A program made the position numbers and the translations under genes. 5,747 nt of DNA. Origin: a virus. Lineage: Duplodnaviria; Heunggongvirae; Uroviricota; Caudoviricetes. The DNA lies in the IMG/VR virus record IMGVR_UViG_2576861133_000018, one strand, 5' to 3'. This document shows positions 1-5,747 of this stretch, one piece after another; positions within the stretch are counted from its first letter, which is position 1, and each line of letters opens with the position of its first letter. The notes under the pieces are model-generated. The model was not told where the DNA came from. It saw nothing but the letters and a program-made list of their open reading frames with translations, and searched no databases.

Positions 1-15
1 CTCGGTTTACGAGAA
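1..15. other. Partial invertase crossover site (pix/gix-like), left boundary of the invertible segment, cut by the window edge
   Basis: ctcggtttacgagaa matches positions 12-26 of the reverse complement of the site at 3323-3348 (ttatctaaaacc tc ggtttacaggaa) except for an AG to GA swap. Only the core and one half-site are visible. Confidence 0.5.
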
Positions 16-948
16 CTCGGCACAAGCGGGGAGAAAATACCGTTACTCAGTACAGCGAATACCTGGACTAATCGACAAACATTCAGCGGTGGCCTTTCTG
101 GTGAACTATCCGGCAATGCTTCTACAGCTGCAAAATTAAAAACTGCCAGGAAAATAAGCAATGTGGCTTTTGATGGTTCCTCCGATATCACATTAAAAGC
201 AAGTCATGTTGGTGCGTTTGCCTTAGGGAAAACAGGAAGCACCGTTGCGAATGATAAAGCAGTTGGATGGAACTGGAGTAGCGGAGCCTATAACGCAACT
301 ATTAGTGGTGCATCAACGTTAATTATTCATTTTTATATGGGAGAAGGAAGTTGTCCTGCAGCTCAGTTTCGGATTAATTATAAAAATGGCGGTATTTTTT
401 ATCGTTCAGCCCGTGATGGTTATGGTTTTGAAGCCGACTGGTCCGAATTTTACACCACCACCAGAAAGCCTTCAGCAGGAGATGTTGGTGCACTGCCGTT
501 ATCTGGTGGTCAACTGAATGGTGCACTGGGTATCGGAACATCCAGTGCTCTTGGCGGTAATTCGATTGTATTGGGTGATAATGACACGGGCTTTAAACAA
601 AATGGCGATGGTAATCTGGATGTTTATGCTAATAACGTCCATGTTATGCGCTTTGTCTCCGGAAGCATTCAAAGTAATAAAACCATAAATATTACAGGGC
701 GTGTTAACCCCTCGGATTACGGTAACTTTGATTCCCGTTATGTGAAAGATGTTCGACTTGGTTCACAGCAATATTATGGAGTGAACAACTGGCAAACATG
801 GAATTTCCAGTGCCCTTCAGGTCATGTATTGTCTGGTATTAATGTTCAGGATACAGGGTCTAACTCTGCCGATAATATAGCGGGCGTTTATTACAGACCC
901 GTTCAAAAGTATATAAATGGCACCTGGTATAATGTAGCGAGCGTTTAA
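1..948 (+). CDS. Phage tail-fibre protein, C-terminal variable domain (5' end lies upstream of the window)
   Basis: Frame 1 is open from nt 1 to TAA at 946-948; the ORF track reports only the GTG-bounded part 163-948. Gly/Asn/Ser-rich. Shares motif [22 protein letters not shown] with the minus-strand paralogue (ALGGNSITLGDNDTGIKQGGDG) and a similar C-terminal tip ([14 protein letters not shown] vs RPLQKYISGNWYNV). Starts LGLRE, encoded by the partial crossover site at 1-15. A tfa gene follows 1 nt after the stop. Confidence 0.8.
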
Positions 949-949
949 T

Positions 950-1483
950 ATGATGCACTTAAAGAACATAAAAGCGGGTAATGCTAAAACACTGGAACAG
1001 TATGAGTTAACAAAGAAACACGGAGTTATCTGGCTTTACTCTGAGGACGGAAAAAACTGGTATGAGGAAGTGAAAAACTTTCAGCCAGACACCATAAAGA
1101 TTGTTTACGATGAAAATAATATTATTGTTGCCATAACCAAAGATGCCTCCACACTTAACCCTGAAGGTTATAGCGTCGTTGAGATTCCTGATATTACCGC
1201 CAACCGGCGTGCTGACGACTCAGGTAAATGGATGTTTAAAGATGGCGCAGTCATTAAACGTGTATATACCGAAGAAGAGTTGCGCCTACAGACGGAAAAC
1301 CAGAAAAAAATATTATTACAGCAGGCCAGAGAAAAAACGCAGTTCTGGCAAACACAGCTTACTTTGGGGATTATCACTGATTCAGACAGACAGCAACTGA
1401 TGAACTGGATGCGATACGTGCAACAGGTTGAGACAACTGATACCTCGGTTCTTCCTGTAACATTCCCGGAACCACCAGAATAA
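950..1483 (+). CDS. tfa: Tail-fibre assembly protein (Tfa chaperone)
   Basis: 177-aa ORF starting 1 nt after the tail-fibre stop. N-terminus [11 protein letters not shown]...[16 protein letters not shown] is nearly identical in pattern to the convergent paralogue at 1514-2041, with a divergent C-terminal half, as expected for Tfa/U-type chaperones. Start may be the second ATG at 953. Confidence 0.85.
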
Positions 1484-1484
1484 G

Positions 1485-1510
1485 AAAAGGCCCGTACGGG
1501 CCTTAATTTG
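1485..1510. terminator. Bidirectional intrinsic terminator between the convergent tfa genes
   Basis: Perfect palindrome ggcccgtacgggcc at 1489-1502, flanked by aaaa (1485-1488) and ttaatttg (1503-1510). It sits in the 30-nt gap between the stop codons of the two tfa genes. Confidence 0.6.
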
Positions 1511-1513
1511 TTG

Positions 1514-2041
1514 TTATTCTGGTTTCTGTGGCCATTCAGGCTTTGCAGTATCCACACGGCTGACCATAACGCTGTAGCGTTCCCATGATTCCAGTCGTGT
1601 GCGTTCCTCATCAGTTGCCATATTCAGTCTGACAGCACGTTCCAGCGGTTGAATCACAGACTCCGCTTCGGAAAGCAAAGCGGCTTTTTGTAACTCTGCC
1701 TGCTGTTGCAGTTCCTGTTTTGTATATTCCCGCTTTACTACTTTACCATCCAGAAACTTCCAGTTTCCCGAGATATCGGCGCGACGGTTGGCTGTTATAT
1801 TCGGTAACTCAACAACACTTAACCCGTCAGGGTTAAGTGTTGATACGTCTTTCTCAATACAACGAATAATCCCCTTCTGGTCATAAGCTATTTTTAAAGT
1901 ATCATCCTGAAAGTTTTTTAATTCGTCATACCAGTTTTTACCGTCTTCTGTATATAGCCAGATAACGCCAGCTTTTTTCGTAAGCTGATACTGCTCAATG
2001 GTTTTGGGGTTTCCGGCGGTAATATTTTTCAGATGTTGCAT
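1514..2041 (-). CDS. tfa: Tail-fibre assembly protein (Tfa chaperone), alternate copy
   Basis: 175-aa [43 protein letters not shown]..., paralogous to 950-1483. It lies immediately downstream of the minus-strand tail-fibre gene; start ATG 2039-2041 is 15 nt after that gene's stop. Confidence 0.85.
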
Positions 2042-2056
2042 ATATTCTCCTGATGG

Positions 2057-3338
2057 CTATGCCTGTTCAACGTTATACCAGTTACCAGAAATGTATTTTT
2101 GTAGTGGTCGTGACACCATCCAGTCATCTCCATCAACCTCACCAATAATTTGCAATCCTGTTGTCACATGACCATTACCTGGTTCGCAAAGTCCTCCGCG
2201 ATATAATGTGTCAGAACGTCTGCCTCCCAGACGCACATTTCTGATAAAAGAACTATTCAGGTAATCATTTAAGTTTGACCCCCAGCACCCACCAAATATA
2301 TTTCCATCGGTGTTATAACGGACGCCACCCGCAATAAGAGCACCCGGTGAAATAAAGGATTTATCGTTCGGGTTAAACTGCCATAAAGCATCATTACCGC
2401 CATCGCCACGCATATGAATACATGGAACCGGAAATCCATACTGTTCTGTCAGTAAATACCCAAAGCTGACCGCGCCGGGATAGCCCTGTCCATTGCGAAT
2501 GGACAAGCCCTTAACTATCGGCACGTAAAGACCACCAGGAGTGGGATTCCAGGCAAACTGCGTCTGAACAAAAGGCGCGGTGGCATTATTCAACTGGTCT
2601 GCAAATGCGCCACTTCCATCAGGAATTATTCCCTGATGAATATATGCAACCCGCTTATAAAAATCAGCAGATGCGGGTTGAAGCCCAAATGCCAGTTGTC
2701 CATTTGAATAGAATAAAAGGACACCGTCGCCGCCCTGTTTAATACCAGTGTCGTTATCTCCGAGAGTAATGGAATTACCGCCCAGTGCGTTATCTGTACC
2801 AAGCGCCAGCCCACCATCAATTTTGGCCCCGTGGCTGACAGATATAGCACCTGTTCTCAGATTTATAGCGAATGGCCTTAATGGGCCGATATCACCGTTT
2901 TCGCCTTGTCCTTCAGCCGTCGGAATGAAATGAAGAAAATCTTCTGAACGACGGAAAATAAGACCGAAGGCATCATTGAAAATTCGCAGCGCATTCACCG
3001 TGCCAATTTTCAGTTCTCCGGTCATTTTATCGCCGGAACGCTGAACGGCGTTACCAGCCTTGTTTACCGTTTCCTGTAAACCGAGGTAGACAGATATAGC
3101 ACCTGTTCTCAGATTTATAGCGAATGGCCTTAATGGGCCGATATCACCGTTTTCGCCTTGTCCTTCAGCCGTCGGAATGAAATGAAGAAAATCTTCTGAA
3201 CGACGGAAAATAAGACCGAAGGCATCATTGAAAATTCGCAGCGCATTCACCGTGCCAATTTTCAGTTCTCCGGTCATTTTATCGCCGGAACGCTGAACGG
3301 CGTTACCAGCCTTGTTTACCGTTTCCTGTAAACCGAGG
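2057..3338 (-). CDS. Alternate tail-fibre C-terminal variable domain (no own start; would be fused to the constant N-terminal part only after inversion); contains an in-frame 84-aa tandem duplication
   Basis: Frame is open from the crossover site down to the stop at 2057; the ORF track starts at Met 3277. Immediately upstream in frame is NLGLQETVNK, encoded by the crossover site, preceded by TAA. Shares the Gly-rich motif and C-terminal tip with the + strand tail fibre. The 5' boundary is approximate. Confidence 0.8.
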
Positions 3339-3340
3339 TT
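2837..3340. repeat. Perfect direct tandem duplication, 2 x 252 bp (copy 1 about 2837-3088, copy 2 about 3089-3340)
   Basis: By eye the two copies are identical over about 250 bp (gacagatatagcacctgttctcag ... gtttcctgtaaaccgagg). The encoded 84 aa (MTGELKIGTVNALRIF ... AVQRSGDK) appears twice in the 2057-3277 ORF. Each copy ends with ttcctgtaaaccgagg, the left half and core of the crossover site. Confidence 0.9.
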
Positions 3341-3348
3341 TTAGATAA
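3323..3348. other. 26-bp invertase crossover site (pix/gix/hix family), right boundary of the invertible segment
   Basis: ttcctgtaaacc ga ggttttagataa has two 12-bp inverted half-sites around a 2-bp core. From memory it differs at one position from the phage Mu gix site (TTCCTGTAAACCGAGGTTTTGGATAA). It lies just upstream of the invertase gene, the position it occupies in Mu, P1 and e14. Confidence 0.75.
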
Positions 3349-3402: not shown

Positions 3403-3645
3403 GTGCTGATTGGCTATGTAAGGGTATCAACAAATGACCAGAATACAGATCTGCAACGAAACGCTCTTGTTTGTGCAGGATATGAACAAATATTTGAAGA
3501 TAAATTAAGCGGAACAAGGACAGGCCGACCTGGATTAAAACGTGCTTTAAAGCGCCTTCAAAAAGGTGACGCACTGGTTGTCTGAAAACTGGACTGACTG
3601 GTTCACTGTATGCGGCATCTTGTCGTGCTGGTGGTGGAAGCCTAG
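3403..3645 (+). pseudogene. pin: Decayed Pin/Gin/Cin-family serine DNA invertase (N-terminal fragment only)
   Basis: RBS ggaga at 3392-3396, then GTG 3403 encoding (M)LIGYVRVSTNDQNTDLQRNALVCAGYEQIFEDKLSGTRTGRPGLKRALKRLQKGDALVV, the conserved invertase N-terminus including the catalytic Ser in VRVST. TGA at 3583-3585 sits where family members have Trp (WKLDRLGRS). A second in-frame TGA at 3595-3597 is followed by recognisable homology (HCMRHLVVLVVEA) to TAG at 3643-3645. The C-terminal two-thirds, including the DNA-binding domain, is missing. The ORF track calls 3379-3585. Confidence 0.75.
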
Positions 3646-3729
3646 AAAAAGTATCGGGTGTTACTGAACCGTGTTGATACATCAACTGCACCTGATATTG
3701 AGTGGCCTACGAACCCTGTCAGGGAGTAA
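3646..3729 (+). pseudogene. 3' fragment of a tail-fibre assembly gene, fused in frame to the invertase remnant
   Basis: Encodes [27 protein letters not shown], matching the C-terminus of the ORF at 4509-4778 ([27 protein letters not shown]). No start codon and no N-terminal part. Confidence 0.65.
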
Positions 3730-3780
3730 TCATTGGGATTATGCCGCAGCACGTCTTAAGCAAGAACGTGCTGCGGTTGG
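3646..3780. repeat. Direct repeat copy A (tfa 3' end plus downstream hairpin), about 135 bp, roughly 85-90% identical to copy B
   Basis: Identical blocks cgtgttgatacatcaactgcacctgatattgagtggcct and cctgtcagggagtaatcattgggattatgccgcag are shared with 4694-4829; differences are scattered elsewhere. Confidence 0.8.
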
Positions 3781-4508: not shown

Positions 4509-4778
4509 ATGCTGCCGCAGCATAGCGATATTGAAATAGCCTGGTATGCTTCGATACAGCAGGAGCCGAATGGCTGGAAGACCGTCACCACACAGTTCTA
4601 CATCCAGGAATTCAGTGAGTATATTGCGCCACTGCAGGATGCTGTAGATCTGGAAATCGCAACGGAGGAAGAAAGATCGTTGCTGGAGGCATGGAATAAA
4701 TATCGGGTATTGTTGAATCGTGTTGATACATCAACTGCACCTGATATTGAGTGGCCTGCAAATCCTGTCAGGGAGTAA
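4509..4778 (+). CDS. Truncated tail-fibre assembly protein (C-terminal domain only)
   Basis: 89-aa ORF with RBS aagggg 4 nt before ATG 4509. The C-terminal part ([39 protein letters not shown]) resembles the C-terminus of the Tfa at 1514-2041 ([36 protein letters not shown]). The conserved Tfa N-terminus (MxHLKNI...GVIWLY) is absent. Confidence 0.6.
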
Positions 4779-4829
4779 TCATTGGGATTATGCCGCAGAC
4801 ACGTCGTATGCAGGAACGTGCTGCGGTTA
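4694..4829. repeat. Direct repeat copy B (tfa 3' end plus imperfect hairpin 4793-4826)
   Basis: Partner of 3646-3780; see copy A. The hairpin ccgcagacacgt ... acgtgctgcgg has a one-base bulge. Confidence 0.8.
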
Positions 4830-4892
4830 GTTTGTGAGCTTTCGATAGTGGTTGTTATTTTTGCCCTTATTTGTTCCGGAGGCCATGGTTCA

Positions 4893-5063
4893 ATGGTCCG
4901 TCTGCCCCCTGTGGTGATGTCAGCAAAATCAGCCACTGCGCGAACCACAATAGCCCGGGAAGATGCTGAAGATCACCAGGTAAAGCTGTCAGCGCAGAAA
5001 CTGGAAGAACTGCTCGCATCAATGGTTAAGGATGAGGTTGATCGCAATGATGGGATTTATTGA
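4893..5063 (+). CDS. Hypothetical small protein (56 aa); possibly a pseudogene whose frame continues past an in-frame TGA to 5153
   Basis: ATG 4893 is preceded by ggagg at 4876-4880 (12-nt spacing). Encodes MVRLPPVVMSAKSATARTTIAREDAEDHQVKLSAQKLEELLASMVKDEVDRNDGIY. The ORF-track TTG start at 4782 overlaps the upstream hairpin and is less plausible. The same frame stays open after TGA 5061-5063 for 29 more codons to TAA 5151-5153. No recognisable family. Confidence 0.3.
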   Translation: MVRLPPVVMSAKSATARTTIAREDAEDHQVKLSAQKLEELLASMVKDEVDRNDGIY

Positions 5064-5189: not shown

Positions 5190-5747
5190 TTAAAACCGCA
5201 TCAACCTTTCCACCAATTGTTCTTTACGGGCAACGATCCACCCATGTTGCTCCAGATAAAATTTAAACCGTTCCAGCGTGCATACCATCGCATCGGCGGG
5301 GACTTTTTCTGTGAACTCGACCTGACCGTGTTTATCGAAGTGGATCAGTAATGCGCATCCATTATTTGGGGCGGGGGAGTTTTGTGCTGCAGGAGGACGT
5401 TTGTGGAGTTCTTCTTCCATTGCGTTAAATTTTTCAATGTAAGCTTCTTTTAGTCTGGCTGCTTTTTTGCCAGTAAATCCCATTACGAGGAACATGAAGC
5501 CGTCTTTTGTGATCAGGTAGCATCGTGATTCACGTTCTGCGCCGTTGCCAATTTCGACAGTCTGAACATCGGCCGAAAAGTTGGCTGATGTAAATTCGGG
5601 AGAGCAGTCGAGTGTGTCAATCTTAGCTAAAACGTGTTTATGTTGTTTATCGAAGTAGTCGGCAACAGCTTGAGAGGTGGTAACCAGGCGACCATCTTTG
5701 AAAAAGACTTTTGGTGACTCGTTAGAAAAAGTTATAGCTGTATTCAT
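5190..5747 (-). CDS. Rha-family phage regulatory protein (antirepressor-like)
   Basis: 185-aa ORF whose N-terminal half (FFKDGRLVTTSQAVADYFDKQHKHVLAKIDTL...YLITKDGFMFLVMGFTGKKAARLKEAYIEKFNAMEEEL) matches the pattern of the phage Rha regulatory domain. The start ATG is the last 3 nt of the window, so the true start could lie further upstream. Confidence 0.7.
   Translation of the reverse strand: MNTAITFSNESPKVFFKDGRLVTTSQAVADYFDKQHKHVLAKIDTLDCSPEFTSANFSADVQTVEIGNGAERESRCYLITKDGFMFLVMGFTGKKAARLKEAYIEKFNAMEEELHKRPPAAQNSPAPNNGCALLIHFDKHGQVEFTEKVPADAMVCTLERFKFYLEQHGWIVARKEQLVERLMRF

Follow-up and report, generated by a model that had tools for sequence, protein, structure and literature searches.

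The invertible tail-fibre segment of Escherichia coli ST131 prophage Phi4, in a copy that carries a 252-bp tandem duplication

Introduction

The stretch of viral DNA analysed here (5,747 nucleotides, hereafter the window) is identified, with a probability of about 0.93 for the explanation as a whole, as the locus of the invertible host-range segment of Phi4, a lambdoid prophage of Escherichia coli ST131 that is inserted at ompW, beside the trp operon. With nt 2837–3088 removed, the window equals nt 1488208–1493702 of the JJ1886 genome, with 0 differences over 5495 nt (100% identity); the annotations of JJ1886 and EC958 are the source of the prophage context given below.

The segment has been described before. 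A "3106 bp invertible segment" of Phi4 in EC958 was published with both of its 26-bp sites (Table 3 of Forde et al., 2014, PLoS One 9:e104400, PMC4134206), and the same authors remarked on the severe truncation of the Phi4 invertase and proposed that the invertase of another prophage, Phi1, acts on Phi4 in trans. The sites, the truncated invertase, the genes and the flanks are all common to EC958 Phi4 and the window locus, and the two are 100% identical once the segment is exactly flipped, apart from the 252-bp duplication; the window has the orientation of JJ1886, which is the opposite of the EC958 reference. Since the 2014 paper already covers the whole system at this very locus, the present finding is mainly a correct identification: the locus and its switch are already known, and what is unreported so far is the tandem duplication, which is present in the window and in no public genome searched. 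An earlier note on this DNA had proposed an invertible tail-fibre segment from the letters alone; it had passed over the duplication, the third, partial site that the duplication makes and an invertase stump of 60 codons.

Results

Two tail-fibre cassettes converge on a palindromic hairpin, AAGGCCCGTACGGGCCTT (Table 1), the arrangement that the earlier note had recognized: StfA and TfaA are read from the plus strand, and StfB and TfaB from the minus strand. The hairpin (folding energy −14.3 kcal/mol, z = −3.55) is a predicted terminator on each strand and would serve both cassettes.

Table 1. Features of the Phi4 invertible segment and its right flank, in window coordinates.
Feature	Position	Strand	Details
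Left crossover site, inner part	1..15		Core TC at nt 2-3; inner half GGTTTACGAGAA
StfA, variable C-terminal fibre part expressed in the window orientation	1..948	+	315 codons; Mu/P1 S'-like
TfaA, tail-fibre assembly chaperone	950..1483	+	177 aa; PF02413, E = 6e-32; 5yvq_B, E = 2e-70
Palindromic hairpin, predicted terminator of both converging cassettes	1487..1504	both	Predicted terminator on each strand
TfaB, tail-fibre assembly chaperone	1514..2041	-	175 aa; PF02413, E = 9e-35; 5yvq_B, E = 3e-86
StfB, silent alternative variable fibre part	2057..3337	-	No start codon; begins LGLQETVNK at the site
Duplication, copy 1	2837..3088		Ends GGTA, the start of the left outer half-site
Third, partial site made by the duplication	3071..3096		Good inner half and core GA; outer half essentially random
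Duplication, copy 2	3089..3340		Differs from copy 1 in the last base only (T, not A)
Right crossover site	3323..3348		TTCCTGTAAACC GA GGTTTTAGATAA; core 3335-3336
Serine invertase gene stump	3403..3585	+	60 codons, then TGA; Pfam Resolvase, E = 3e-15, positions 2-69 of 145
Stretch homologous to the recombinational enhancer	3421..3492		Intact within the stump

StfA opens with the LGLRE read earlier and runs as LGLRELGTS... to its stop, continuing a constant part located upstream; a single CDS in the JJ1886 annotation (6123–8948 of the extracted JJ1886 locus, L001) covers the constant part and StfA and passes through the left site. It matches Pfam gp37_C and, in the PDB, the Mu S/S' chains (8ju3, E = 2e-54; 5yvq, E = 2e-15). 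StfB is 84 codons longer here than in all other genomes, owing to the duplication; from nt 3343 downwards its frame reads TAA-N-LGLQETVNK..., which bears out the description of a minus-strand fibre that lacks a start codon and follows a stop. A Pfam search found no family for StfB, and its homology is known from a representative-protein search and from the PDB match of its tip to Mu S (5yvq_A, E = 2e-14) only. Behind each variable part lies a Tfa (U-type) chaperone gene of its own; TfaA is 69% identical to Mu U' and TfaB 78% identical to Mu U (blastp), and the chain that both match in the PDB (5yvq_B) is that of Mu U.

The constant fibre part and the left outer half-site were taken from window-identical genomes and are presumed for the window itself. 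In those genomes the constant part comprises 626 codons, lies directly upstream and is in frame in either orientation. When the flip is computed, the constant part and StfB form an uninterrupted fibre of 968 codons, and the same fused form is on record as a protein of 968 aa (P0002). Both elements that had been expected beyond the left edge of the window, an inverted copy of the site and an in-frame N-terminal fibre part, are thus present in window-identical genomes.

The right crossover site agrees with Mu gix at 25 of 26 positions and has the same GA core. Its inverted partner is found, as had been claimed, at the very start of the window, where nt 1 is the last base of the left outer half-site; the remaining 11 nt of that half lie upstream, and the window contains no more than 15 of the partner's 26 nt. 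Both sites have a 2-bp core flanked by two 12-bp half-sites. These 15 nt match nt 3323–3337 in inverted form with 2 mismatches (13/15). The full left site in JJ1886 is TTATCGAATACC TC GGTTTACGAGAA; it is like the right site at 22 of 26 positions, and the cores TC and GA are equal once inverted. A site search of the window returned three matches, against 0.01 expected by chance. Without the duplication the segment measures 3083 bp from core to core; the earlier estimate of about 3.35 kb was correct in placing it above the e14 segment (about 1.83 kb between sites) and included about 252 bp that are due to the tandem duplication.

The segment inverts. Reverse-complementing nt 8002–11084 of the JJ1886 locus (L001) gives the EC958 sequence with 0 differences over 7200 nt, and the flip is exact at the central dinucleotide. 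In a census of complete genomes made with equal 1600-nt junction-spanning queries for the two orientations, 212 had the window orientation and 234 the flipped one. Both states occur among closely related isolates: U12A has the window orientation and U13A, U14A and U15A the flipped one, and these four come from one patient and are only 26 core SNPs apart (PMC6692316). The long-read evidence that the earlier note had asked for is published for EC958, where PacBio data of one culture hold the Phi4 segment in both orientations, with a separate contig for the alternative allele, and about half of the PacBio reads of the Phi1 segment fall in each orientation (PMC4134206). Least probable of the alternatives considered here is that the segment is a frozen fossil, in which inversion stopped with the truncation of the invertase and the orientations in databases are old, clonally inherited states: the neighbouring invertase is indeed a 60-codon stump, and lom split by ISEc12 and Tfa fragments testify to further prophage damage, but same-patient isolates 26 core SNPs apart differ in orientation, the separate contigs for the alternative Phi4 allele came from one EC958 DNA preparation (PMC4134206), and the near-even split among ST131-like genomes fits free switching.

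In this explanation a Gin-family serine invertase makes its cuts at the central dinucleotide (TC/GA) of the two inverted sites, upon which the 3.08 kb between them flips and the expressed fibre tip and chaperone are swapped. A functional invertase gene is absent beside the segment; only the stump adjoins the right site. The motif with the catalytic serine, YVRVST, is preserved in it, but the remainder of the catalytic domain is missing and so is the domain that binds DNA; its sequence has 95% identity with residues 1–60 of Gin, and RefSeq labels it "recombinase family protein, incomplete". Because the prophage's own invertase is a stump, the enzyme must be supplied in trans, and the inversion system is complete in trans only. 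The trans enzyme is most likely the Phi1 invertase (WP_000905061.1, 199 aa), which is intact in EC958 and JJ1886 and 93% identical to the stump over the 60 aa that they have in common; Phi1 is a P2-like prophage of the same lineage, and its sites are nearly identical to those of Phi4.

The enhancer-homologous stretch within the stump is identical at 55 of 72 positions to the enhancer annotated in the P1 record at nt 19–90 of cin, and at 70 of 72 positions to the intact Phi1 invertase gene. Homology with the P1 annotation suggests an enhancer role for this stretch, and its retention as a Fis-dependent-enhancer-like element in the stump is probably why the segment still flips.

The tandem duplication is direct and in frame (84 codons) and lies beside the right crossover site, with one end 4 nt from the core; GGTA at its junction is identical to the four bases with which the left outer half-site, GGTATTCGATAA, starts. 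The 84-aa unit is a module of which natural fibres have two to four repeats, and in one relative, P0009, such a module is duplicated in tandem over 125 aa, the copies being 99% identical. The junction was sought with a 50-mer (25 nt from each side, halves too short to seed alone) and a 30-nt exact pattern: there were 0 matches among 5426 complete E. coli genomes, and it was not found in phage or plasmid records, GTDB species-representative genomes, IMG/VR viral contigs or JGI metagenome contigs. The true right boundary, used as the positive control, was found in 478 genomes. The 406-aa open reading frame created by the duplication is not on record in an exact-protein look-up, a weak test in that gene callers could pick the second Met and so hide the duplication.

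A half-site matrix was derived from 11 different half-sites of Mu, P1, e14, Phi1 and Phi4; with it the inner and outer halves of the third site score 12.6 and 0.6 bits, against 12.6–17.3 bits for real halves. Products of its use were absent from the complete E. coli, GTDB, IMG/VR and JGI metagenome collections searched. Because the outer half reaches only 0.6 bits and these collections contain no product, the window copy is not a multi-site system of the Min or shufflon kind, which needs at least three functional sites.

Discussion

Among known inversion systems, the closest counterpart of the Phi4 segment is Mu G, which has the same layout (Sc-[Sv-U-U'-Sv']-invertase), a segment of 3059 bp as compared with 3083 bp, and closely matching chaperones (Tfa, 69–78% identity). 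The differences from Mu lie in the constant part, which in Phi4 is a long lambda-type Stf N-terminal domain of a siphovirus-type prophage in place of the Mu Sc part; in the body of StfB, which is largely unrelated to Mu Sv save at its start and tip; and in the invertase in cis, which is dead in Phi4, unlike Mu Gin. P1 C/Cin has the same fibre, chaperone and invertase families, its Sv' has a block in common with StfA (82% identical), and its enhancer is at the 5' end of cin, as the homologous stretch of Phi4 is in the stump; the P1 cix core, however, is TT/AA as against TC/GA, and cin is on the other side of the segment and reads towards cixL. The P1 C segment is also larger than that of Phi4, at 4.2 kb, and has long inverted repeats of 0.6 kb.

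The earlier comparison with the Mu G, P1 C and e14 P segments stands for the layout of the first two, and the locus is of the Mu G type rather than the e14 type. The P/PinE system of e14 in E. coli K-12 likewise belongs to a defective prophage in the chromosome, and its stf-tfa cassettes converge beside a Pin invertase; unlike that of Phi4, this invertase is intact. As a candidate for the closest relative, e14 was rejected: its Tfa proteins are barely related to those of Phi4 (TfaP alone gives a match, with 31% identity over 62 aa), its segment is half as long, and its core dinucleotide is another one (AA/TT). Min of p15B is a multi-site inversion system; by comparison, the window copy has three site-like sequences and could in principle undergo nested inversions, the third sequence having one credible half-site only.

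As to the duplication, an error of assembly, consensus or sequence handling, at a locus known to confuse assemblers, is a minority possibility that carries real weight. Cultures that hold both orientations do confuse assemblers at such loci, artefactual duplications in these phage regions have been warned of (Forde et al., 2014; PMC4134206), no collection searched contains the junction, and the reading frame is not on record. Mixed orientations should, however, yield inverted chimeras, whereas this duplication is direct; it is also in frame and exact but for one base, and the odd base is precisely the one expected had the duplication arisen in the flipped state and been carried through a genuine inversion. 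Fresh tandem duplications of this fibre module, moreover, occur naturally, as in P0009.

That the duplication is real and its location at the crossover site no coincidence, the first fibre module behind the site having recently been copied in frame together with the inner half-site and the core and then inverted, is a tentative and rather doubtful reading. An exact duplication made in the window orientation was tried and rejected: it predicts the junction GAGGTTGACAG, and GAGGTAGACAG is observed, one base off. The simplest history, in an argument that turns on this one base, would be that the duplication arose while the segment was in the opposite orientation, with a duplicated unit that took in the core together with 4 nt of the half-site on the constant-part side and the opening 246 nt of StfB, and that inversion through the outer, complete site followed. 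Were the duplication real, a join at the inner site would read ...GAATACC TC GGTTTACAGG..., and StfB proper would follow 252 bp later.

It is very unlikely that the invertase itself made the duplication, by joining the real site to a quasi-site located 252 bp within StfB in an unequal exchange of sister chromatids. One endpoint does lie only 4 nt from the crossover core, and the native far endpoint, TATCTGTCAGCC AC GG, shares 8 of 12 in-register positions with the inner half-site; a conservative exchange, however, predicts CTGTCAGCC-NC-GGTTTAC, and CTGTCTACC-TC-GGTTTAC is observed. The quasi-site was rejected as the main explanation because it ranks only in the top 3–5% of all positions in the 21.5 kb scanned with the half-site matrix, and because serine invertases cut within the 2-bp core, whereas the junction is 4 nt outside it. 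The Gin/Hin topological filter, besides, strongly disfavours exchange between sites in direct repeat in this family.

Phi4 looks defective: in the JJ1886 annotation, lom is interrupted by ISEc12 and Tfa fragments are present. Given this appearance, the switch may have no present effect on any virion.

The segment shows a prophage switching its receptor-binding fibre tip, and how one that looks defective can go on switching with an invertase most likely borrowed from a neighbouring prophage; the survival of the enhancer-homologous stretch in a dead invertase gene is a small addition to the published account. Differences in orientation between assemblies of this locus are biological, and are to be read neither as misassembly nor as phylogenetic signal. 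If the duplication is real, it would illustrate the gain of a module and a site together, a private, in-frame event ending 4 nt from the crossover, and the two possible fusion points would give fibres of two lengths. Should the proposed origin at the crossover site also hold, the window would be a snapshot of cassettes gaining fibre modules and additional sites for crossover, from which multi-site systems like Min could be built.

Tail-fibre cassettes and crossover sites

The locus is an ordinary, already documented Gin-family tail-fibre inversion system that works in trans, and the earlier note identified the feature correctly. In the six-frame open reading frame list and the sequence, two cassettes converge: a variable fibre part on the + strand (StfA) with its chaperone (TfaA), and a silent part on the − strand (StfB) with its own (TfaB). 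Both Tfa genes encode tail-fibre assembly proteins (Pfam PF02413) that match the Mu chaperone U, for which a structure has been solved, and both fibre frames match the Mu S/S′ chains. The palindrome between the cassettes folds far better than shuffled sequence. Open frames, Pfam, Mu matches and a two-strand terminator score thus bear out the convergent cassettes and palindromic terminator of the earlier note, and the StfB translation shows the start-less alternative fibre that it had read after TAA, with site-encoded LGLQET.

Features of the invertible locus (window coordinates)
Feature	Position (nt)	Strand	Remarks
StfA frame, LGLRELGTS...	1 to stop at 946–948	+	open frame
TfaA gene, 177 aa	950–1483	+	PF02413; Mu U match E = 2e-70
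Palindrome AAGGCCCGTACGGGCCTT	1487–1504	both	terminator score; between cassettes
TfaB gene, 175 aa	1514–2041	−	PF02413; Mu U match E = 3e-86
StfB long frame, without start codon	2057–3337	−	TAA, Asn codon, then LGLQETVNK
Direct tandem repeat, 252 bp	2837–3088 and 3089–3340		copies differ solely in last base, A vs. T
Third copy of inner half-site and core	3071–3096		created by duplication
Right crossover site TTCCTGTAAACC GA GGTTTTAGATAA	3323–3348		26 bp
Invertase stump, 60 residues then TGA	3403–3585		95% identical to Gin
Class I SAM-dependent methyltransferase gene, 222 aa	3784–4452	−	several Pfam methyltransferase domains; between tfa-fragment repeats
C-terminal half of third Tfa, 89 aa	within 4509–5063		PF02413 positions 75–130

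The crossover site comprises two 12-bp half-sites (outer and inner) around a 2-bp core. The inner 15 nt of the right site are found inverted at nt 1–15 with two mismatches, and the window holds three site matches (0.01 expected by chance); with cassettes and inverted matches as described, the earlier observation is correct as written. Window nt 1 is position 12 of the left site, one base ahead of the core, so the left site is not visible whole from the window alone. In the E. coli ST131 genome JJ1886, the 11 nt directly upstream of nt 1 complete it as TTATCGAATACC TC GGTTTACGAGAA, and the tail-fibre coding sequence starts 1878 bp upstream of nt 1 and reads through it. Both things on which the claim had been staked, an inverted partner site and a constant fibre part in frame with nt 1, are therefore present upstream. 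At its other end (5747) the window stops exactly at the ATG of a Rha-family regulator gene (5190–5747, − strand).

Genomic source and inversion

Megablast of the window against 5426 complete E. coli genomes gave 100% identity across the entire window in ST131 strains such as JJ1886, but the match spans just 5495 bp; the window minus nt 2837–3088 is JJ1886 base for base. The prophage that carries the locus there is lambdoid and occupies ompW, next to the trp operon; the locus corresponds to that of prophage Phi4 in a second ST131 genome, EC958 (Forde et al., 2014; PMC4134206). That study described a '3106 bp invertible segment' with exactly these two 26-bp sites at its ends, a 'severely truncated' invertase and the alternative orientation on a separate PacBio contig, and proposed that the invertase of Phi1, a P2-like prophage of the same lineage with near-identical sites, acts in trans. 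Upstream of the window in JJ1886 (2779–5971 of L001, the Phi4 region), a lom-like prophage gene is interrupted by ISEc12 (IS21-family), and ompW is cut short where it meets the end of the prophage, so Phi4 may be defective.

Reverse-complementing JJ1886 between the central dinucleotides (3083 bp) yields EC958 with 0 differences in 7200 nt, and the fibre reading frame remains intact after this computed flip. Two 1600-nt queries of equal design across the left junction found the window orientation in 212 genomes and the flipped one in 234. Among four isolates obtained from a single patient over four years and 26 core SNPs apart (PMC6692316), U12A carries the window orientation and U13A, U14A and U15A the other; the Phi4 segment therefore switches over short periods despite its dead cis invertase.

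Invertase and enhancer-like stretch

In the invertase stump beside the right site the catalytic serine survives within its YVRVST motif, but the remaining catalytic domain and the DNA-binding domain are gone. An intact 199-aa invertase (WP_000905061.1) adjoins the Phi1 invertible segment in both EC958 and JJ1886, and the Phi1 sites have both half-site types and the GA/TC core in common with those of Phi4. We infer, as did Forde et al., that this is the enzyme acting on Phi4, whose segment it would flip in trans. The invertible segment of Phi1 itself (2822–5593 of L003 in EC958; also in L007, from JJ1886) has inner half-sites that are both of the StfA type, GGTTTACGAGAA, and the JJ1886 annotation marks a frameshift in one of the Phi1 Tfa genes.

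In the P1 record, the Cin enhancer is placed at nt 19–90 of cin. The homologous stretch of the stump (3421–3492) is intact and agrees with the live Phi1 gene at 70 of 72 positions and with P1 at 55 of 72. Judging from sequence, survival of this enhancer-like cis element may explain why the Phi4 segment still flips, a point apparently not discussed in Forde et al.

Relation to Mu and other known systems

The module is of the Mu G type, and the likeness drawn in the earlier note is upheld by segment length (3059 bp in Mu G vs. 3083 bp), by a right site equal to Mu gix at 25 of 26 positions with a common GA core, and by Tfa identity (TfaB 78% to U, TfaA 69% to U′). The window orientation has its counterpart in Mu G(−), with the S′-like part expressed. 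Two features set it apart from Mu: a long N-terminal domain of the lambda Stf type as its constant part, and a dead cis invertase. The parallel with e14 holds only partly: its P segment is only ~1.83 kb, shorter than the present one as the earlier note had stated, has an AA/TT core and encodes Tfa proteins barely related to those of the window. Some Mu-like Yersinia phages show 97% DNA identity along nt 553–3348.

Downstream debris

Past the stump, the frame continues to ~3650, interrupted by two stop codons, and there joins the 3′ end of a tfa gene (3586–3780). The stretch 3632–3778 is repeated at 4681–4828 (89–90% identical), the same hairpin, GCCGCAGCACGT...ACGTGCTGCGG, ends both copies of the tfa 3′-end repeat, and these repeats (3586–3780, 4630–4830) bracket an inserted cassette. 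Its methyltransferase gene looks like cargo that replaced the remaining invertase and tfa region. The third Tfa fragment and the DUF4376 pseudogene with an internal stop that follows it (4509–5063, JJ1886 annotation) are more debris of tail-fibre modules.

A 252-bp tandem duplication

The 252-bp repeat is in frame, doubles an 84-aa stretch of silent StfB and ends 4 nt past the right crossover core. The outer half of the third site is essentially random (0.6 bits vs. 12.6–17.3 for real halves). A search validated by a positive control found the duplication junction absent from complete E. coli genomes, phage and plasmid records, species-representative genomes, and viral and metagenome contigs.

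The junction reads GGTA (A at 3088), the opening bases of the left outer half-site GGTATTCGATAA. Had the 252 bp been duplicated exactly with the segment in the window orientation, this position would be T; that model is rejected. Since the junction A matches the left outer half-site, the simplest history has two steps: with the constant part fused to StfB, an exact tandem duplication would first have copied TACC, the core and the first 246 nt of StfB, and ordinary inversion via the complete outer site would have followed. One base thus suggests duplication in the flipped state and then inversion.

An assembly error could also have produced the repeat, though this is less likely than not. As a fibre module the 84-aa unit recurs: relatives found among 1.84 billion representative proteins have 2–4 matched copies, and one weak hit has seven. 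P0009, a natural relative of these fibres from that search, carries a 125-aa tandem duplication of a comparable module (residues 176–425, 99% identical); fresh in-frame duplications therefore occur naturally in this fibre family. Duplication by the invertase through a quasi-site is unlikely, because the junction lies 4 nt outside the cleavage core and the candidate quasi-site is unremarkable.

Just two observations add to the literature, the private duplication and the enhancer-like stretch, and neither alters the overall picture of the switch.
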